The notes under the pieces: model-generated
Databases searched by the model: none
What the model was told of the DNA's origin: nothing
The model's input: only the letters and a program-made list of their open reading frames with translations
Virus record (IMG/VR): IMGVR_UViG_3300050007_000314
Coordinates: 1 to 12,599 of that record
Source: a virus
Taxonomy: Duplodnaviria > Heunggongvirae > Uroviricota > Caudoviricetes
DNA: 12,599 nt
Direction: 5' to 3' (one strand)
Position numbers and translations under genes: made by a program
Shown here: positions 1-12,421 of the stretch, piece after piece
Layout of the letters: every line of letters starts with the position of its first letter
Numbering within the stretch: position 1 is the stretch's first letter

Positions 1-723
1 TAAGATCGCCCACATCAGCGGCTGTCGCCGCGCCCCCATACCCGTCAGCATAGTGGTGTAGAGCGAATCTGTGGGATGTTCGTGATACTCGTCGACAATC
101 GCACAGTGCGGTGAAGCGCCGTCACCAGGGTTACCAATCAGCGGCTCAAAACGCGCGCCATCCTCTGGCCGGTTCAGGTTGGACGCATTAACCTCGATCC
201 CGAACGCTTCCACCAGCAGCGGTGTACGCTTACACATCAGGCGAGCGGGTCTGAATACTTCCCACGCCTGCTTTTCAGTTGTGGCCCCGGAATATACTTC
301 AGCGCCAAACTCGTTATCACAGGTAAAACAGTACAGCGCCACACCCGCCGAAATAGCTGATTTCCCGTTTTTACGCGGTATCTCAGTGTAAACCTCGCGA
401 AAGCGACGAAGCTTCGAGCCTTTCTGGACCCAGCCAAAGGCGCAGCACACAATAAACAATTGCCATGCCTCCAGGGTTATCGGCATCCGCTTGAATGCCC
501 ACTCTCCTTTTGTATGTGGCAATAACTGGATAAATTTCGCAGCCTTTTCTGCCATGTCTTTATCGAAACGGTAACGAAATTTCTTACTCTTTTCAGCCGC
601 CATGTCATCGATATGACGCTGGCAGGCCTGAATGACAAACTGGCACGCCGGGATTTTCCCCCGCACAACGTTGCGGGCGTATTGATTCGCGGCGTTTACG
701 TTGGGGTACGATTTCCGGCTCAT
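1..723 (-). CDS. Phage terminase large subunit (TerL), N-terminal ~240 codons; gene runs off the left edge of the window
   Basis: Minus-strand frame is open from ATG at 721-723 to position 1 with no stop. It is absent from the ORF track only because it has no stop inside the window. Translation [29 protein letters not shown]...[20 protein letters not shown]...[35 protein letters not shown] has a Walker A-like NGKS and Walker B-like IVDEYHE, typical of terminase ATPase domains. Start ATG overlaps the terS stop (ATGA at 720-723). Confidence 0.85.
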
Positions 724-2416: not shown

Positions 2417-3031
2417 TCACACCAGTGCGGCTTTAGCTTTGGCGTAACGTTCACGGCGGTCTTTAATGCCGTTCTGCCCGCCGTTAATAATTTGCGTGAC
2501 GCGTTCCACATCCCCCGAATAGAGGAGACAACCGCGTAACGTGAAGTACCATGCTGCCGAGCGGGCCGCGTGTCGCTCTTGCGTCAATAGTTCAGGAGTG
2601 CTCACAAGGTCAAGCTTCAGCGCTGTACCGCATTTGGTATAGTTCTCTCGGCCGGTGATTTGAAGCAGGCCGCGACCGCGATATTTCCAGCCATCACCCT
2701 GGCTGTTATTCCCCATGCGGTCACCGTAAACCAGATTGGCTATTTGTGGCTGGTGAGCGACTTGTTTACCATCGACACGCCCCAGCATTTCGCTCTGATA
2801 CGGCGTCAGGCGCTTACCGAAGGTTTTCTTCAGCCCTTCAACCGAGTAGTTAAAGTTCTCTACCAGCGAGGTAAAGCCATTGGATTCATGCCCAACTTGT
2901 GCAATGAACATGGCCTGATCATTAACCGCTGTAATTCCAAACTCTTTCATTGCCGCATCAATGTGCGGAAACCAGCGCGCAGAAAGCCCGGCGCTGATAC
3001 CAGCCGCCTGCTGAAATTGTGATTGGTTCAT
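2417..3031 (-). CDS. Endolysin, glycoside hydrolase family 19 (chitinase-like lysozyme)
   Basis: 204-aa ORF with ATG start and GAGG RBS. Contains the GH19 signature region GDGWKYRGRGLLQITGRENYTKCG. Sits between the holin-like genes and the spanin pair. Confidence 0.85.
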   Translation of the reverse strand: MNQSQFQQAAGISAGLSARWFPHIDAAMKEFGITAVNDQAMFIAQVGHESNGFTSLVENFNYSVEGLKKTFGKRLTPYQSEMLGRVDGKQVAHQPQIANLVYGDRMGNNSQGDGWKYRGRGLLQITGRENYTKCGTALKLDLVSTPELLTQERHAARSAAWYFTLRGCLLYSGDVERVTQIINGGQNGIKDRRERYAKAKAALV

Positions 3032-3033
3032 TA

Positions 3034-3312
3034 TTACCTCAGATGATCAACCAGCCGCGCTACGTTGCCCCTGACGGCGACCAGCACAGACAAGAAAATA
3101 ATGTTGGCCCCGATAGTGGCCCACGATGAATAAGGGTAGATACCGCACAGATAAGCCAGCGGAACCGCGCTATAGATGACCGTAAGCAGCCACGCTAAGC
3201 GAGATATCCACGGTCGATGTCGGGAATCACCACGGCGGTAAAACATCAGGGTCAGGACTACCCCAGCGCAAAGCAGCGCATTAATTGTTGCCGACGGGTC
3301 ATTTAGTACCAC
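3034..3312 (-). CDS. Holin-like small membrane protein (92 aa), second member of a holin/antiholin-like pair
   Basis: GTG start at 3310-3312 with GGGAGG about 6 nt upstream; 14-nt overlap with the upstream membrane-protein gene. Product has about 3 hydrophobic helices (INALLCAGVVLTLMFY, LAWLLTVIYSAVPLAYLCGIY, IGANIIFLSVLVAV) and a charged C-terminus. Lies immediately upstream of the endolysin. Confidence 0.6.
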   Translation of the reverse strand: MVLNDPSATINALLCAGVVLTLMFYRRGDSRHRPWISRLAWLLTVIYSAVPLAYLCGIYPYSSWATIGANIIFLSVLVAVRGNVARLVDHLR

Positions 3313-7832: not shown

Positions 7833-8707
7833 GCGGCCTCTCCCCGCATATTGCGAACAAGTTCAGAAGCTGCAGTAATGATTTCGCTGGTGGCCGTTCG
7901 TTCCAGCCAGAGTTGATTTATGTTGGCTTTCAGCTTGTTCTGCTGAGCCTCACTCAATACGTCAACGCCTTCCACTTGGTTGAACACAAGACCAACCTCG
8001 AGAGGCCAGATACGTGACTCAGTTTCCGGTGTTGCTGCTGGTTCCATGGCTGCCTGCATTGCGATTGTTTGCTCTTTACTAACGGCGAATTGAGCCAAAG
8101 CCATAAATGCCCGCCCTTTTTCCTCCAGTTCTGTGCGGTTGATATAGCTGAACCGCTCACCCCGCCACGACTTATCGAATACAGCTATGGCACCGGCAAA
8201 AAACGCGCTGGTGGGTTTCTGTTTTTCGTCAGCAGGTACAAACCACACAGGCAGATCGAACCCAATACGACCACGAATAAACATGATGTGATCGGCATCT
8301 TCCGGCCACCATGTTTCACTTGTGGCAGACTTCACCAGGTAAATATAGCGACCACCTCTTTCACGCATGTCCATGGTGTGATTCATGATGTGTGTCATAC
8401 CCGTAATCGCCTGCTTGTCGTGATACTGGGAGCGGCTATATGGAGGGTTGGCAAAAGCCGCGCCGCCCAGTTCATCCAGACGTTCAGACCAGTTCTGTGT
8501 CAGCGCGTTATCTTCGGCGGTGTACCATGCCGGACACTTCGCGTTATCGTCGTCAGCAAACAGGTCCAGAACTAATGGACCAAATAGCGCGTTGATCCCC
8601 CAGAAAAGCAGATCCGGTGTCCGCCACTGATCGCCAACTTCTTTCAATTCGTGGGCTGGTTGGCTACGTAGTGCCGCCAGCGCCTGGCAATATTTGTTTA
8701 ACGTCAT
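7829..8707 (-). CDS. Phage DNA N6-adenine methyltransferase (Dam-family) with a ~100-aa C-terminal extension
   Basis: 292-aa ORF whose ATG start overlaps the stop of the replication gene (ATGA). N-terminal two-thirds has the phage Dam-type pattern (WRTPDLLFWGINALFGPLVLDLFA ... AAFANPPYS, with the NPPY catalytic motif). C-terminal ~100 aa (RTELEEKGRAFMALAQFAVSKEQ...) is unassigned. Confidence 0.8.
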   Translation of the reverse strand: MTLNKYCQALAALRSQPAHELKEVGDQWRTPDLLFWGINALFGPLVLDLFADDDNAKCPAWYTAEDNALTQNWSERLDELGGAAFANPPYSRSQYHDKQAITGMTHIMNHTMDMRERGGRYIYLVKSATSETWWPEDADHIMFIRGRIGFDLPVWFVPADEKQKPTSAFFAGAIAVFDKSWRGERFSYINRTELEEKGRAFMALAQFAVSKEQTIAMQAAMEPAATPETESRIWPLEVGLVFNQVEGVDVLSEAQQNKLKANINQLWLERTATSEIITAASELVRNMRGEAA

Positions 8708-9561
8708 CCTCTGAACCCCGCAGGAATCGTTGTATCAACCGGACCAAAAGCCATCACATCGCGCTTTTTCGCACCCCAGTCAGCGCGTTTAGGCCGTCCT
8801 TTCTGATCCCAGCGGGTAGCGCTTTGCAGATAGCTCTCGAATTTCTTCGGGCCAAACAGCGTTTCCGGCCTCATGTACTGGTACTGCTCGTCGTTCTCGT
8901 GCCAGTGCTCATGCTTCAGGTCGATAACCAGTTGCAGGTCTGCAACGCTGTACCCCTCACGCAGTCGGGCACGGATGTTCTCCAGGGAGGTTTTTGATTT
9001 CTGATACCGGGATCCGCTGATCTGGTTCAAATGGGACAAAACCAAAATCGCCTGGTCAGTAATCACGACTTCAGGGTCTGGTTGCGCCGCAACCGGACAA
9101 GAGGGTTTTGAAGTTACTTGTGGATCTTGTGTTGATTTTACTGACGGATCCCCGCCAGATTCTGACGGGTCAAAACCGCCGTTTTTGCCAGATTTCGACG
9201 GGTCAGTTTTTGAGGCGTCAAATTTTGATGCGTCAGATTTTGACGTGTCAGAATCTGACAGTTGAGAAAATGCGGCAGCCTGAAGTTTCGCCACATTCAG
9301 ACGATACACGTTCGAAGCATTACGGTTACCATTACGGCGCTGTGTACGCGTGAGCCAGCCATCTTTTTCAAGCTTAGCGATTGCCGTTCTGATAGTGCTC
9401 GGCCCTGCGCCAAGCTGACGAGCAATAGTTTCAATGGACGGCCAGCACACCCCCTCATCGCTGCTGAAATCAGCAAGGCGAGCCATGATCGCGACACTAG
9501 ACAACTTCATGCCCGACGCCGCGCAACCATCCCATACGTAGCCGGTTAATTTAGTGCTCAT
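8704..9561 (-). CDS. Replication initiator protein (lambda O-like role): N-terminal HTH domain, low-complexity acidic Ser/Asp/Lys linker, conserved phage replication C-terminal domain
   Basis: 285-aa ORF with ATG at 9559-9561. N-terminal winged-HTH-like region (LSSVAIMARLADFSSDEGVCWPSIETIARQLGAGPSTIRTAIAKLEKDGWLTR), a central repeat linker SDSDTSKSDASKFDASKTDPSKSGKNGGFDPSESGGDPS, and a C-terminal block (ITDQAILVLSHLNQISGSRYQKSKTSLENIRARLREGYSVADLQLVIDLKHEHWHENDEQYQYMRPETLFGPKKFESYL) recalled as the conserved C-terminus of phage replication initiators. Iteron-like DNA repeats are embedded in the linker-coding region. Confidence 0.7.
   Translation of the reverse strand: MSTKLTGYVWDGCAASGMKLSSVAIMARLADFSSDEGVCWPSIETIARQLGAGPSTIRTAIAKLEKDGWLTRTQRRNGNRNASNVYRLNVAKLQAAAFSQLSDSDTSKSDASKFDASKTDPSKSGKNGGFDPSESGGDPSVKSTQDPQVTSKPSCPVAAQPDPEVVITDQAILVLSHLNQISGSRYQKSKTSLENIRARLREGYSVADLQLVIDLKHEHWHENDEQYQYMRPETLFGPKKFESYLQSATRWDQKGRPKRADWGAKKRDVMAFGPVDTTIPAGFRG
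9137..9265. repeat. Iteron-like tandem direct repeats inside the replication initiator gene; candidate origin of replication
   Basis: Plus-strand tandem units at about 15-bp spacing: GCGTCAAATTTTGAT (9215-9229), GCGTCAGATTTTGAC (9230-9244), GTGTCAGAATCTGAC (9245-9259). Looser copies lie upstream (ACTGACGGATCC at 9140-9151, TCTGACGGGTCA at 9161-9172, TCGACGGGTCAG at 9195-9206). AT-richer flank at about 9100-9140. Analogous to ori-lambda iterons inside gene O. Confidence 0.5.
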
Positions 9562-9902
9562 GATCGTCCGTTATCTCCCTGAATTTTTGCCTGAAATGCT
9601 CAAGTGGGCTGAAGCATTCGTGCGGGTAGCCATCACGCAGATAGATAACGCGCTGTGTTTCTGGCTCCCAGCGGATAACACGGACTGGCACTCCGCGGTG
9701 GTCTTTGAACCTTCGGTTAAGTTCGCGCACAGGCGTTTTGCCCTCCGGTTGTAGACCCCCACAATTGAAACCGCCCTACTGTGGTTACACGGAACCCAGC
9801 GGTTTGATAATCTGCGCTCATACCGAAACAACGGAGTACCCGAAACCGGGATCATCCTTAGTTGCGGTAGACGGTTAAAAGCCGTTAAACTGCTCATGCG
9901 GA

Positions 9903-10454
9903 TTATTTCTCCATACTCGAAGAGTTGTTCGCCAAGGCGCCCGGAGCTGCACACTCGCGGGCGTCACTCTTTTCTGGAAGGCAATAAACTCGTGAAATCA
10001 GGTTCAGGAACGTCATAAGCGTTACCCGGAACTGGTAGGCGATTTCATTCAGACTGTCCCACTCCCCTTTATCAACTACACCATCATCGATGTATCGACG
10101 GTATGCGTTGACCAGATCCCCAAGCCTGCCCACCAGCTCAGCCAGCTTTAAGCCAATTTCTTCGTTCTCTGTTTCTGGTGCTGCGCCAGGGATATGAATC
10201 CCGTTATCTGTTTGACGAGAAAACGCATCTGCTATGTAGCTAACACCGGCGGCTTTCTGTAGCACCATCGCCCATCCCATAGGGAAGATCTGATCCCCAT
10301 CCACACGAAGGCGGTTAAACAATGCGTTCTCTGTCACGCCCAACCATTCCGCAGCCTCAGCATATCCACCAGGCAGATCGGTAATCGTTTTTTTAATCGC
10401 TACCACCAGCCAAGAAGGCTGACGTTCAACTTTCCAAATAGGTTCGTTACCCAC
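9903..10454 (-). CDS. HTH regulator in the cII position (cII/YdaT-like, putative), 183 aa
   Basis: ORF track 9903..10559 would overlap the cro-like gene by 77 nt. I prefer the in-frame GTG at 10452-10454 with AAGGGG 6 nt upstream (MGNEPIWKVERQPSWLVVAIKK...). Helix-turn-helix-like segment GGYAEAAEWLGVTENALFNRLR. Gene order cro-like then this gene then replication initiator parallels lambda cro-cII-O. Function inferred from position and the HTH only. Confidence 0.4.
   Translation of the reverse strand: MGNEPIWKVERQPSWLVVAIKKTITDLPGGYAEAAEWLGVTENALFNRLRVDGDQIFPMGWAMVLQKAAGVSYIADAFSRQTDNGIHIPGAAPETENEEIGLKLAELVGRLGDLVNAYRRYIDDGVVDKGEWDSLNEIAYQFRVTLMTFLNLISRVYCLPEKSDARECAAPGALANNSSSMEK
9936..9977 (+). 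terminator. Possible plus-strand intrinsic terminator antisense to the 3-prime end of the cII-like gene (OOP-like antisense RNA terminator candidate)
   Basis: Plus-strand GGCGCCCGGAG-ctgcaca-CTCgCGGGCGTC (stem about 10 bp with a 1-nt bulge) followed by ACTCTTTTCT. The T-tract exists only on the plus strand. No convincing promoter was found upstream, so this is low confidence. Confidence 0.25.
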
Positions 10455-10482: not shown

Positions 10483-10725
10483 TTACGCTGCTGAATCTTT
10501 AATCTTTTGAAAAATATCAGGACGTAATTTCTCTCTTGAAACTCCGGTGACCTTTTCAATTAGCGCTGATAGTTTTGCTGGTGGTTTTTTCTCTCTGTTC
10601 AGCCAGTTCCAGACCTGCTGTTGTTTCACTAACCGCCCAGAACTAGCGGTAAGCTTGCGCGCTAACTCTGATTGGCCACCAGCCAGAGCGATTGCCTCTG
10701 AAAGGGCTAACTGCTCGGGAGTCAT
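10483..10725 (-). CDS. Cro-like HTH repressor (YdaS-like, Cro/CI family), 80 aa
   Basis: ORF track 10483..10743 (TTG). I prefer the ATG at 10723-10725 with AGGAG 7 nt upstream (MTPEQLALSEAIALAGGQSELARKLTASSGRLVKQQQVWNWLNREKKPPAKLSALIEKVTGVSREKLRPDIF). The GGQS-x-LAR-x-L ... V-x-QW ... LRPDI pattern matches recalled YdaS/Cro-like proteins. Divergent from the cI-like gene across an operator-rich intergenic region. Confidence 0.7.
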   Translation of the reverse strand: MTPEQLALSEAIALAGGQSELARKLTASSGRLVKQQQVWNWLNREKKPPAKLSALIEKVTGVSREKLRPDIFQKIKDSAA

Positions 10726-10861
10726 AGTTTTCTCCTGTATCAATACATAAAAGTTGTTGCCGATAGAGATTATACAACCTCAACAACTTTTATCACAACT
10801 TTTAGGTGTTGGAAAGCTAAAACATAAAGTTGTAATCTCACCGTAAATAAGGGGGGAAGTT
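10726..10861. promoter_or_regulatory. OR-like divergent promoter/operator region between the cro-like and cI-like genes
   Basis: Four copies of an 8-bp half-site in inverted orientations: AAAGTTGT at 10750-10757 and 10826-10833, ACAACTTT at 10783-10790 and 10795-10802. Minus-strand promoter candidate: -35 TTGTGA, 18-bp spacer, perfect -10 TATAAT (plus 10769-10774). Plus-strand candidate for cI: TTGGAA (10809-10814), 16-bp spacer, TGTAAT (10831-10836). Both overlap the half-sites. Confidence 0.6.
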
Positions 10862-11548
10862 GTGAACACACTGGCGGAAAGACTGAAAGTTGCGAGAGAA
10901 AAAACAGGGTTAAGCCAAGCTCAACTCGCTGAATCAATAGGTGTTTCTCAACAATCCGTAGCAAAAATAGAAAACGGAGATACGTTGCAACCGCGAAAGA
11001 TAAAAGAAATCGCAAATGTATTAGGCGTTAGCCAAAAGTGGTTGCAACTAGGCATTGAGGAAAATGCTTCACTTTCTGATTTTGTGGTTGGAGAGGCTGA
11101 AAGTGCCAGTTTAGACCCTGCCATTTTCGCTGACATACCAGTACTAGATGTAGAGTTATCAGCAGGAAATGGTTGTGAAGCCGAAATTGTAGAGTCTGTA
11201 ATTGACTGGTTTCCTATCCGAAGAATGGATCTAAGGAAAGCTGGAGTCAGCGCTTCAAATGCTAGGATCGTAAAAATTTGGGGGAACAGCTTATTGCCAG
11301 TTCTCAATAACGGCGATCATGTTGCTGTTGATATCGCACAGACAAACCCTATTCGAGATGGCGATTTATACGCTGTCAGAGATGGGGTCCTGCTAAGGGT
11401 CAAAGTGCTAATAAACCAACCTGATGGTGGTTTAATTATAAGAAGCTTCAACAAAGATGAGTATCCAGATGAAATACTCACCTTCAATGAACGCCGCGCA
11501 AGAATTCATGTTATCGGCAGGGTGTTTTGGTCATCACGTTCATGGTAA
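10862..11548 (+). CDS. cI-like prophage repressor (N-terminal XRE-type HTH, C-terminal S24 LexA-like autopeptidase domain)
   Basis: 228-aa ORF with GTG start and a G-rich RBS (AAGGGGGG) about 5 nt upstream. N-terminal HTH LSQAQLAESIGVSQQSVAKIENGD; C-terminal S24-like region with the Ser motif in KIWGNSLLPVLNNGDHVAVD and a downstream Lys (LLRVKVL). Only substantial plus-strand gene in the window; AT-rich. Confidence 0.9.
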   Translation: MNTLAERLKVAREKTGLSQAQLAESIGVSQQSVAKIENGDTLQPRKIKEIANVLGVSQKWLQLGIEENASLSDFVVGEAESASLDPAIFADIPVLDVELSAGNGCEAEIVESVIDWFPIRRMDLRKAGVSASNARIVKIWGNSLLPVLNNGDHVAVDIAQTNPIRDGDLYAVRDGVLLRVKVLINQPDGGLIIRSFNKDEYPDEILTFNERRARIHVIGRVFWSSRSW

Positions 11549-12421
11549 TACGCCAAATAACATTTCCTCTGAGATAATTTTTAGCTTTGCGCCATTATCG
11601 TCGCGATAGCTAACAGCTTTCTCTATCTTTCTCCCGTGGCTGGAAAATTTCCAGTCTCTGGATGATAGGGTTCCGACTACAAGGAAGTCCAGTTTTTGGG
11701 TAATTCCATTACTTATTTTCCCCCCTGCACTTTTGATCCGTTCCTCTACCACCGCTCGCTTACCTGCCATAAAGGTACCCGTTAAACAGTAGGTTTTGTC
11801 CGTAAGATCAACGACTACATTATTATCAATCGGTAGCCTCGTCGCCAATCCATCAACAACACCGCTATCTAGATCGCATCCAGTAAAGTCAACAAGTGCT
11901 TTATGTAGAGTTTCGCTTTCTTCTGGAGTTATTACCCCATCGTTAAGGATATCTTTTATTAGAATGTACAAATCCTTCCCTGGGTAGTTACTCTTAAGAG
12001 CCCCATTTTGTGTTAACCACCAGTCGAGATATCTAATTTCATCTTCCGTCAAGGTCCTATCCGAGATCAGCCCTTTACACAATCCACTAAGAAGATGTAG
12101 ATCCATTTCAGCAGAATAAAAATCAATTCCAGGAATATCTAAAATTTCTCTTTGGATTTTTGTCAGACTGTTTTTGAGTTCTTTTCTTTCTTCCTCTGTA
12201 ATCACCCCATCAGCTAAAATATCTGAGACCCTCGCCGATAGACTCTTAATAACCCCATTTCTTATAATTTGATTTGCTTCAAGTAGCCATGTGTCAAGGT
12301 AAAGAACTTCCTCATCTCTTACCACCCCATCAGCAACAATACCATCAATGATACTGATTAGGTTCGCAAACAACTTATCTCTATTGTGTGTGTAATTAAA
12401 TACGTAAAGCTTGTCTTCCAT
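11540..12421 (-). CDS. Accessory protein of unknown function: N-terminal TerB-like repeat region plus C-terminal BRCT-like domain (293 aa)
   Basis: ATG at 12419-12421 with AGGAGG 5 nt upstream. Four repeats of an ADG-type helix motif (IIDGIVADGVVRDEEVLYL, VSDILADGVITEEERKEL, GLISDRTLTEDEIRYL, IKDILNDGVITPEESETL) resembling TerB domains. C-terminal DKTYCLTGTFMAGKRAVVEERIKSAGGKISNGITQKLDFLVVG...AKLKIISEEMLFGVL resembles the BRCT domain of NAD-dependent DNA ligases. GC roughly 35-40 percent by eye. Convergent with cI, 9-nt 3-prime overlap. Confidence 0.7.
   Translation of the reverse strand: MEDKLYVFNYTHNRDKLFANLISIIDGIVADGVVRDEEVLYLDTWLLEANQIIRNGVIKSLSARVSDILADGVITEEERKELKNSLTKIQREILDIPGIDFYSAEMDLHLLSGLCKGLISDRTLTEDEIRYLDWWLTQNGALKSNYPGKDLYILIKDILNDGVITPEESETLHKALVDFTGCDLDSGVVDGLATRLPIDNNVVVDLTDKTYCLTGTFMAGKRAVVEERIKSAGGKISNGITQKLDFLVVGTLSSRDWKFSSHGRKIEKAVSYRDDNGAKLKIISEEMLFGVLP

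Follow-up and report, generated by a model that had tools for sequence, protein, structure and literature searches.

The OOP RNA of phage lambda is a transcript of about 77 nt, antisense to the cII 3' end, whose promoter, pO/oop, lies inside the opening codons of the next gene downstream. This promoter host is the gene of the replication initiator O, and OOP begins 11 nt before the O ATG, past the O Shine-Dalgarno sequence, which stays uncovered. A second arrangement is that of SymR and SymE in E. coli, a type I toxin-antitoxin system in which the antitoxin RNA opposes the translation start of the toxin mRNA and is transcribed from within the toxin ORF (Kawano et al. 2007, PMC1891008). Closest to the present locus is ECS003 of the cryptic prophage e14 of E. 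coli K-12, a constitutive cis-antisense sRNA (Shinhara et al. 2011, BMC Genomics 12:428, PMC3175480). A strand-specific Northern with a sense-sequence probe gave about 70 nt for ECS003, while its read-dense region covers 78 nt and starts with CAUGCG; a faint species of about 120 nt was taken by the authors as a precursor (PMC3175480). Among the cis-antisense candidates for which a sigma-70 promoter was predicted in that study, ECS003 ranked first in abundance, with 357.9 mean reads (Table 2; PMC3175480). Our literature search for later work on ECS003, or for an alternative name, returned nothing relevant.

Here we compare these systems with a locus in a 12,599-nt stretch of Caudoviricetes DNA, hereafter called the window. 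A sequence-only reading had described a 340-bp gap without a convincing minus-strand ORF between a cII-like gene and the replication initiator. We found instead that this region is filled by a ymfM-like and a DUF4222 gene, both conserved and both on the minus strand, and the genes are thus packed as tightly there as elsewhere on the strand. The cII-like gene itself (9903..10454, minus strand, GTG start) encodes a YmfL-family regulator, which scores 133 bits against NCBIfam NF041471 phage_reg_YmfL (cut-off 90), matches PHROG 101 'CII-like transcriptional activator' with E = 9e-42 and shows a weak match to Pfam CP76. Five nucleotides past its stop starts an ORF of 108 aa (9571..9897, minus strand). 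The predicted product is 38% identical to e14 YmfM (BLASTP E = 6e-15; PHROG 1170, E = 4e-17), and on this similarity we regard it as homologous to YmfM/SfiC, the cell-division inhibitor of e14. All relatives keep the frame of this ORF open, apart from the Providencia locus L013 with a shorter version. The N-terminal 56 codons vary synonymously, for example R14 (CGA/AGG) and L10 (TTA/TTG/CTA/CTC). The final ~52 codons overlap the DUF4222 gene out of frame, and in this part constraint is absent from the ymfM frame.

The DUF4222 gene (9551..9730, minus strand, GTG start, 59 aa) is recognized by Pfam PF13973 (E = 4e-17) and PHROG 1343 (E = 1.5e-33) and is annotated by PGAP in E. coli relatives. 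Among the relatives, the diversity at its three codon positions is 0.085, 0.063 and 0.30, a sign of strong purifying selection. A literature search on DUF4222 function gave nothing relevant. Its stop codon overlaps the initiator ATG (ATGA); the initiator gene (8704..9561, minus strand, HTH_36 and Phg_2220_C domains) lies outside the RNA element and serves as context only. For annotation this means that the seeming intergenic gap in PGAP-style records is a YmfM-family gene overlapping DUF4222. We also considered a −1 frameshift joining the YmfM N-terminus to DUF4222 and rejected it: frame 0 is closed by stops located 21-75 nt before the DUF4222 start, and the start codon and ribosome-binding site of DUF4222 are conserved.

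Two smaller proposals of the sequence-only reading are explained by the same gene. The plus-strand ORF of 64-66 aa (9554/9560-9754), taken in its 66-aa version, has no family match and is interrupted by in-frame stops in 44 out of 91 distinct relatives; it is the shadow of DUF4222. The two GATAAC sequences, which had been compared to DnaA boxes, are both GTT-ATC (Val-Ile) codons of DUF4222. The region 9562-9977 holds no match to TTATNCACA at up to 1 mismatch, and the 9 such matches across the whole window compare with 10.3 expected by chance.

On the plus strand we predict, from a covariance model and the published ECS003, an antisense sRNA of ~80 nt at 9895..9975, with a precision of about +/-3 nt for the 5' end. 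The predicted RNA complements the ymfM ATG (9895-9897) and Shine-Dalgarno sequence CTCC (9909-9912) as well as the stop (9903-9905) and the final ~24 codons of the YmfL-like gene. The covariance model matches 9895-9979(+) with 92.5 bits and e14 with 82.9 bits, but both sequences are in its training set, and hence the direct alignment, not these scores, is the independent evidence. This alignment shows that the window and e14 share the homologous ymfL-ymfM junction, the promoter hexamers with their spacing, an RNA 5' end opposite the ymfM ATG (predicted, for the window), the anti-Shine-Dalgarno block TCTCCA, a hairpin core of 28 identical nt and a similar tail; the length is 78 nt for ECS003 and, as predicted, ~80 nt for the window RNA. 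Indeed, the CAUGCG start of ECS003 lies opposite the e14 ymfM ATG, its 78th nt is located just beyond the conserved hairpin, and the 78-nt species ends in a tail homologous to that of the window. The two differ at stem pair 2, where the window has G·U in place of A-U, and in the 5' single-stranded part, which is only ~60% identical. ECS003 was detected as RNA, while the RNA of the window is predicted.

The same pattern extends to the relatives. Each related locus gives one strong model match, which in every case is antisense and ends at the ymfM ATG, and the invariant blocks of alignment A1 are CA-GCG, TCTCCA and the hairpin core. Matches were found in phages SfV (Shigella) and ST64B (Salmonella), a Stx2c phage, a Klebsiella phage, E. 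coli Nissle and Providencia, and the element is matched in 2,709 of 5,426 complete E. coli genomes. None of the genome records that we inspected annotates it, and a search of the region against 4,227 Rfam families (E <= 1) returned no match. Judged by its position at the junction and its homology in sequence and structure, the window element is a new member of the known, barely characterised ECS003 sRNA family.

Which promoter could drive such an RNA? Promoter prediction on the plus strand had been suggested by the sequence-only reading. A generic scan missed the promoter and also the hairpin, the latter owing to its bulge and loop limits; a conserved hexamer pair is nevertheless present. The scan's sole plus-strand promoter (9784-9811, GTTACA/GATAAT) was discarded, as its −10 is unconserved and reads GATACT, GCTATT or GGTACA in other clades. 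The conserved pair consists of a −35-like hexamer TTGCGG (9862..9867, plus strand), the complement of ymfM codons 11-12 (CCG CAA), and a −10 hexamer TAAACT (9886..9891, plus strand), the complement of ymfM codons 3-4 (AGT TTA). The corresponding elements of e14 ECS003 are TTGCGA-18-TAAACT, compared to TTGCGG-18-TAAACT in the window. All 92 distinct related sequences keep TTGC[G/T][G/A/T] at a fixed position with an 18-nt spacer, and the −10 is TAAACT, TACACT or TAAATT in all 92. By consensus and conservation, this is a candidate sigma-70 promoter of the kind predicted for ECS003. It is suboptimal in its 18-nt spacer and its −35, which matches 3/6 positions, and it is without the TGn extended −10 present in e14 and clade C. 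Sigma-70 RNA polymerase holoenzyme binds the K-12 ymfL/ymfM junction in vitro (PMC3946193).

Because the hexamers lie within a gene, the codon usage of ymfM is informative. P11 is CCG and Q12 is CAA in every one of 65 sequences, where other codons have several synonyms, and Leu4 is TTA in 64 of 65, while 3-5 different codons occur at each of Leu10, 13, 23 and 56. Thus TTA, CAA and CCG, all of them rare codons, are frozen in a neighbourhood where Leu, Arg, Val and Gly codons vary, and this synonymous freezing is confined to the promoter hexamers. As the hexamers are part of the coding sequence, their conservation could be partly protein-level.

The predicted 3' end is formed by a stem-loop at 9936..9965 (plus strand), which we defined by folding and covariation and which is carried by the last ~24 codons of the YmfL-like gene. 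The outer stem comprises 8 bp (arms 9936-9943 and 9958-9965, including G9937·U9964) and the inner stem 3 bp, GAG (9944-9946) with CTC (9954-9956), with a bulged G9957 and a loop of 7 nt. Directly 3' of the stem follows the U-rich tail ACTCTTTTCT (9966..9975, plus strand). Similar tails (ACCTTTTTCC, ACTTCTTTTTGC, ATTACTTTCT, ATTTCTTTTGGCTTTTC) are found in nearly all relatives; the U-tract begins 2-4 nt past the stem, is weak in some of them and is poor in L042 and L044. Taken alone, the window hairpin is only modestly more stable than shuffled sequence (z = −2.0). Comparison across relatives is far more telling. In 20 hand-aligned distinct sequences 100% of the stem cells pair, with changes on both sides in 4 of 11 pairs, a result equalled by 0 of 500 shuffles. 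The larger set of 55 distinct relatives shows pairing in 603 of 603 stem cells, with both-side changes in 7 of 11 pairs, against 32-50% pairing in slid controls. Since alignment A2 was fitted to the covariance model and the sequences share descent, the shuffle statistics overstate the independence of these observations. The GC-rich plus-strand hairpin with its T-tract, which the sequence-only reading had placed at 9936-9977, is therefore seen and is backed by covariation beyond chance and by conservation among related prophages.

Could this conservation merely reflect the YmfL protein? We tried the encoded motif DARECAAPG as an explanation and ruled it out: the hairpin is kept despite a 1-nt loop deletion that alters the YmfL frame, and it is intergenic in Providencia-type loci. 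The same two facts bear on the broader idea that nothing here is regulatory, that the conservation is that of YmfL and YmfM coding and that ECS003 is transcriptional noise. Every element does lie in or beside coding sequence, and a functional follow-up of ECS003 was not found in the searchable literature. We nevertheless hold this to be extremely improbable, given a hairpin that outlasts both frame change and intergenic placement, the stem covariation, the frozen synonymous sites that coincide with the promoter hexamers only, and the high abundance of ECS003 noted above.

A different question is on which strand the hairpin acts. It could work in the sense mRNA, for example by being cut by RNase III or otherwise processed, by stabilising the message or by tuning ymfL-ymfM translational coupling, the antisense RNA being a by-product. 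In favour of such a role, Watson-Crick covariation is strand-symmetric, the sense RNA folds too (−23.3 kcal/mol), and the hairpin precedes the ymfM ribosome-binding site by 30-60 nt. The wobble pairs, however, distinguish the strands: at 5 pair positions, 35 cells form G·U or U·G wobbles in the antisense RNA and would be A·C mismatches in the mRNA, with L117 as the single counter-example. Moreover, the end of the abundant e14 RNA, on the antisense strand, falls exactly at the hairpin, and the sense side is without a T-tract, which also led us to reject an intrinsic terminator on that strand. A function in the sense mRNA thus appears highly unlikely. From these data we conclude that the plus-strand hairpin is real and, as the strand-asymmetric covariation argues, selected as RNA.

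This conclusion also bears on a DNA-level role of the inverted repeat, either as a palindromic protein site or as a recombination 'linker' at the ymfL 3' boundary. Among the relatives the upstream sequence is highly mosaic while the hairpin is constant, and BLAST homology to many phages ends just beyond it, which would favour a role of this kind. The compensatory changes, on the other hand, run throughout the stem, the inner 3 bp included, and the wobbles, the differing loops (CUGCACA, CUGCAA, ACCGCAUAU) and the missing bulge in L147 are typical of RNA helices and not of operators. As a documented transcript ends at this hairpin in e14, we find a DNA-level role scarcely credible.

Which of the two genes does the RNA address? 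The sequence-only reading had proposed an OOP-like antisense RNA. A small antisense RNA ending at the hairpin has indeed been documented for e14 in the form of ECS003; the cII-like gene as its constant partner did not hold up. The likeness to OOP is considerable in architecture: a constitutive antisense RNA of ~77-80 nt (predicted, for the window) in the early-right operon of a lambdoid prophage, with a promoter in the first codons of the gene after a CII-type regulator and an intrinsic terminator hairpin in or beside the 3' end of that regulator. In a true OOP analogue, the RNA would pair with the 3' end of the YmfL mRNA, lead to RNase III decay and lower the lysogeny regulator, and the coverage of ymfM would be incidental. 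The PHROG 101 match of YmfL, the size (~78-80 versus 77 nt), the parallel to pO/oop and the ~72 nt of window RNA, whole hairpin included, that lie inside the YmfL-like coding region (e14 is similar) would all fit this. Across the relatives, however, this overlap with YmfL coding sequence is not kept. The YmfL stop ranges from +1 to −89 relative to the ymfM ATG, and the ~72 nt of the window shrink to about 0-15 nt in many relatives, those of the Providencia type among them. In 24 Providencia-type loci the YmfL-like stop precedes the ymfM ATG by 61-89 nt, and in most of L123-L153 by ~63 nt; at such far-stop loci only the terminator or tail reaches the YmfL coding region, or nothing does.

The ymfM side, in contrast, is constant. 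In every locus the RNA 5' end is at the ymfM ATG, and the complementarity to the ymfM Shine-Dalgarno sequence and AUG is invariant. With this overlap constant and the YmfL overlap variable, the conserved target is more likely ymfM than the cII-like gene. This is different compared to OOP also in detail, since here the promoter host is ymfM in place of the replication initiator, and the predicted RNA covers the Shine-Dalgarno sequence and start codon of that gene, which OOP leaves free. The covariance model, run over lambda 38200-38900 (701 nt, filters off), gave a best match of 7.3 bits (E = 0.07), which is not significant; the resemblance thus concerns architecture only, and we regard a true OOP analogue as unlikely. 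This match falls at the oop position. The lambda oop terminator stems ACGCUCGG/CCGGGCGU resemble the Providencia-type stem and were set aside in view of that score.

With the ymfM ribosome-binding site and start codon as the constant partner, the layout is closer to that of SymR/SymE than to that of OOP: the promoter falls within ymfM codons 3-12, and both the Shine-Dalgarno sequence and the AUG are spanned by the predicted RNA. Additionally, YmfM is SOS-inducible and toxic through filamentation, as published for e14. The likeness does not extend to homology, as no Rfam family matched at E <= 1, SymR included if Rfam has one. The proteins differ as well, with YmfM being a division inhibitor of a phage early operon and SymE an AbrB-fold RNase, and repression of YmfM by the RNA is here only inferred.

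Our preferred reading, to which we assign a probability of roughly 65%, is that the window carries an ECS003-family cis-antisense sRNA gene over the ymfL-like/ymfM-like junction, which keeps YmfM silent until SOS. The sigma-70-type promoter embedded in ymfM codons 3-12 would start plus-strand transcription at ~9895-9898, the complement of the ymfM ATG, and transcription would end at the hairpin and U-rich tail (9936-9975). The resulting RNA of ~80 nt would match, without a single mispair, the ymfM Shine-Dalgarno sequence and start codon, the ymfL stop and the ymfL 3' end. By analogy to e14, we infer that the RNA is expressed in the window prophage and terminates at the hairpin. Made constitutively in the lysogen, it would pair with the leaky ymfL-ymfM transcript and keep ribosomes off ymfM, probably yielding an RNase III substrate. 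With its putative target ymfM repressed, the division inhibitor YmfM/SfiC would stay silent until SOS induces sense transcription strong enough to outrun the RNA. If true, this would explain how prophages silence a potent division inhibitor in lysogens and release it only on induction. As a tentative extension, to which we give somewhat less than even odds, the ECS003-family RNA and ymfM may form a conserved, SOS-linked module of the lambdoid early operon that resembles a type I toxin-antitoxin pair, with the RNA as the safety catch of SfiC.

In e14, expression of ymfM prevents Z-ring formation and causes filamentation (bioRxiv 10.1101/2020.11.19.390815). With that work the SfiC gene was identified in 2020, after 35 years; the RNA is absent from the paper. 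The cloned e14 ymfM ORF includes 53 of the 59 DUF4222 codons as well. Since the K-12 'ymfM' ORF thus overlaps an unannotated, strongly constrained DUF4222 gene, either of the two products may be SfiC. The prophage group that carries the element is a very common lambdoid one, present in about half of the complete E. coli genomes and reaching out to Providencia.

The minus strand of the window carries a lambdoid early-right operon, which faces a LexA-family cI-like repressor gene on the plus strand (10862-11548) and includes a Cro/YdaS-like gene (10483-10743), a YmfL-family regulator (9903-10454; NCBIfam NF041471, 133 bits; PHROG 101 "CII-like transcriptional activator"), a replication initiator (HTH_36/Phg_2220_C, 8704-9561) and a Dam methylase gene. 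The 340 bp from the YmfL-like stop to the start of the initiator, which the sequence-only reading had taken for a gap, are in fact occupied by two minus-strand ORFs. The first, a YmfM homologue (9571-9897; BLASTP E = 6e-15 against e14 YmfM; PHROG 1170, E = 4e-17), starts 5 nt past the YmfL-like stop; the second is a DUF4222 ORF (9551-9730; Pfam E = 4e-17), whose TGA overlaps the initiator ATG. The DUF4222 gene is PGAP-annotated in E. coli relatives, and the equivalent place in E. coli K-12 is annotated as ymfL-ymfM-ymfN. Two other proposals for this region had to be abandoned: DnaA boxes gave no match with one mismatch or fewer there and a window-wide count at chance, the GATAAC motifs being Val-Ile codons of DUF4222, and the 66-aa plus-strand ORF has no family match and is interrupted in 44/91 relatives.

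The GC-rich plus-strand hairpin of the same reading was confirmed. Its outer stem of 8 bp, which includes G9937·U9964, pairs 9936-9943 with 9958-9965; it encloses a bulged G, an inner stem of 3 bp and a loop of 7 nt, and is followed by the tail ACTCTTTTCT. The single-sequence z-score against shuffled sequence is only -2.0, and we consider the comparison of relatives decisive for the significance of the hairpin. Among 20 distinct hand-extracted sequences all 220 of the 220 stem cells pair and 4 of the 11 pairs are changed on both sides, a combination matched by 0/500 shuffles. When more distant loci, fetched via their YmfM-like proteins, were included and aligned to a covariance model, 55 distinct sequences gave 603/603 paired cells and two-sided changes at 7/11 pairs, compared with 32-50% pairing in slid controls; these figures come from an alignment that is fitted to the model and from sequences that share ancestry. 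A protein motif is ruled out as the explanation, because the hairpin is kept in a clade in which a 1-nt loop deletion alters the YmfL reading frame and is intergenic in Providencia-type loci. At five pair positions, 35 cells are G·U or U·G on the plus (antisense) strand and would be A·C mismatches in the mRNA, while the reverse asymmetry occurs only in one related locus, L117. Because the wobbles pair on the antisense strand and would mismatch in the mRNA, the functional strand of the hairpin is the antisense one. In two IMG/VR contigs (L042 and L044) the tail reads ACCTTCCCCAAA, almost without a U-tract, with hairpin and promoter intact; termination there may be inefficient or proceed by a different route.

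The predicted promoter consists of a -35-like hexamer TTGCGG (9862-9867, plus strand) and, after an 18-nt spacer, the -10 hexamer TAAACT (9886-9891), followed downstream by the complement of the ymfM ATG (9895-9897). This register is kept in 92/92 distinct sequences as TTGC[G/T][G/A/T], 18 nt and TAAACT, TACACT or TAAATT. On the opposite strand the two hexamers fall on ymfM codons 3-4 and 11-12, and the codons beneath them are frozen (TTA 64/65, CCG 65/65, CAA 65/65), whereas other Leu, Arg, Val and Gly codons vary. Independently, genomic SELEX with the sigma-70 holoenzyme placed a site of constitutive RNA-polymerase binding at the K-12 ymfL/ymfM junction (PMC3946193). The match that a generic promoter scan gave, at 9784-9811, was rejected as unconserved among relatives.

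An RNA from the homologous locus has already been detected: ECS003, found in E. coli K-12 antisense to e14 ymfL and ymfM (Shinhara et al. 2011, PMC3175480). Among the tabulated cis-antisense candidates with a predicted sigma-70 promoter, its read count is by far the highest. The read-dense region spans 78 nt, a sense-sequence oligo reveals one band near 70 nt and a faint second one near 120 nt, and the level stayed constant over the growth and stress conditions tested (PMC3175480). The deposited sequence (PMC3175480) begins CAUGCGUUAGUUUCUCC, which is complementary to the ATG and ribosome-binding site of ymfM, and nucleotide 78 falls in the tail just past ...CGCGGGCGUC, the hairpin conserved in the window. 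The covariance model finds one strong antisense match per locus, without exception abutting the ymfM start, among others in the window (9895-9979, 92.5 bits), in e14, phages SfV and ST64B, a Stx2c phage, Klebsiella phage Kp4866-6, E. coli Nissle and Providencia. A 126-nt query of promoter and RNA has matches in 2,709/5,426 complete E. coli genomes; the records inspected carry no RNA annotation at the matched loci, and an Rfam search returned no matching family in the region. The proposal of a small antisense RNA is borne out, on the strength of published detection at the homologous e14 locus, and we assign the element to a known sRNA family of putative function as a new member. Modest novelty lies in the covariation seen throughout the family, in the constant relation to ymfM and in the connection with SfiC, the SOS-inducible division inhibitor of e14.

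What does the RNA act on? The earlier assignment, an OOP-like RNA directed at the cII-like gene, draws on the roughly 72 nt of YmfL-like coding region that the RNA would overlap in the window. This overlap is variable: among family members the position of the YmfL-like stop ranges from +1 to -89 with respect to the ymfM ATG, and in Providencia-type loci the RNA barely reaches YmfL. Two features are invariant, the 5' end facing the ymfM AUG and the anti-SD (TCTCCA/CTCCA). Expression of YmfM prevents Z rings from forming and explains the SOS-inducible SfiC phenotype, according to a paper that mentions neither an antisense RNA nor DUF4222 (bioRxiv 10.1101/2020.11.19.390815). The OOP/cII assignment is therefore probably wrong, and the best-supported reading is that the RNA would occlude the ymfM translation-initiation region by pairing over it, possibly with added RNase III cleavage. 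Masking of the ymfM ribosome-binding site was also the suggestion of the ECS003 authors (PMC3175480). An additional OOP-like effect on YmfL may exist in clades with a long overlap. The layout parallels SymR/SymE, in which a 77-nt RNA faces the 5' end of the mRNA for an SOS-induced toxin and has its promoter inside the toxin ORF (PMC1891008): in both the RNA lies at the gene start and the promoter within the ORF. Lambda oop differs, as it starts beyond the Shine-Dalgarno of the O gene, whereas the window RNA would cover the ymfM ribosome-binding site, and the covariance model finds no significant similarity to oop (best 7.3 bits). This best, non-significant lambda match falls exactly on oop (lambda 38590-38660; 391-461, minus strand, of the fetched locus L156), and there is a likeness between the stem of the oop terminator, ACGCUCGG/CCGGGCGU, and that of the Providencia type, GACGCUCGGG/CCUGAGCGUC, which may be coincidence or very old common origin. 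Atlantibacter sp. RC6 (L009), with promoter and hairpin intact, has GTG in place of ATG as its ymfM start, so that the first bases of the RNA would be CACGCG.

Of 90 related loci fetched via the DUF4222 protein, all but one Providencia locus have a ymfM frame without stops between the YmfL stop and +157 of DUF4222. Within the overlap, DUF4222 has the textbook codon pattern (diversity 0.085, 0.063 and 0.30 at codon positions 1, 2 and 3), and codon diversity revealed no constraint on the ymfM frame there. The N-terminal 56 ymfM codons, outside the overlap, encode invariant residues with several synonymous codons (for example R14 CGA/AGG; L10 TTA/TTG/CTA/CTC; also V18, G20, R51 and L56), which points to protein-level selection. 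The Providencia-type YmfM-like protein is only 68-69 aa long and ends at the DUF4222 start. The conserved YmfM unit thus comprises the N-terminal 60 or so residues.

In K-12, ymfM is annotated ("cell division inhibitor", 112 aa), while a 59-aa DUF4222 ORF under strong constraint, which lies across the 3' half of ymfM in a different frame, is unannotated (3002-3181 of the e14 locus L003; NC_000913.3 about 1204001-1204180; TTG start, AAGGAG ribosome-binding site). Because codons 1-53 of DUF4222, together with a ribosome-binding site of their own, would be present in the published pBAD-ymfM clone, either ORF may be the cause of the SfiC filamentation. Phage SfV orf37 ("immunity region", 1938-2774 of locus L094), a 278-aa ORF running from the ymfM-type ATG through DUF4222 and the Rha region, is probably an annotation artefact of overlapping frames; PGAP annotates DUF4222 and Rha as separate genes in E. 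coli relatives (L002). The window's initiator ORF contains, in its linker region, five to seven direct repeats spaced by 15 nt (9154-9308, core 9187-9265, consensus about GTCAGATTTTGACGNGTCA), which look as one would expect of iterons or of an origin that, as in lambda O, lies within the gene for the initiator. A 293-aa ORF (11540-12421, minus strand) with a C-terminal BRCT domain (Pfam E = 7e-7) converges on the cI-like repressor gene from just beyond its 3' end; the domain is unusual in a prophage immunity region, and the ORF may be an accessory or defence gene.
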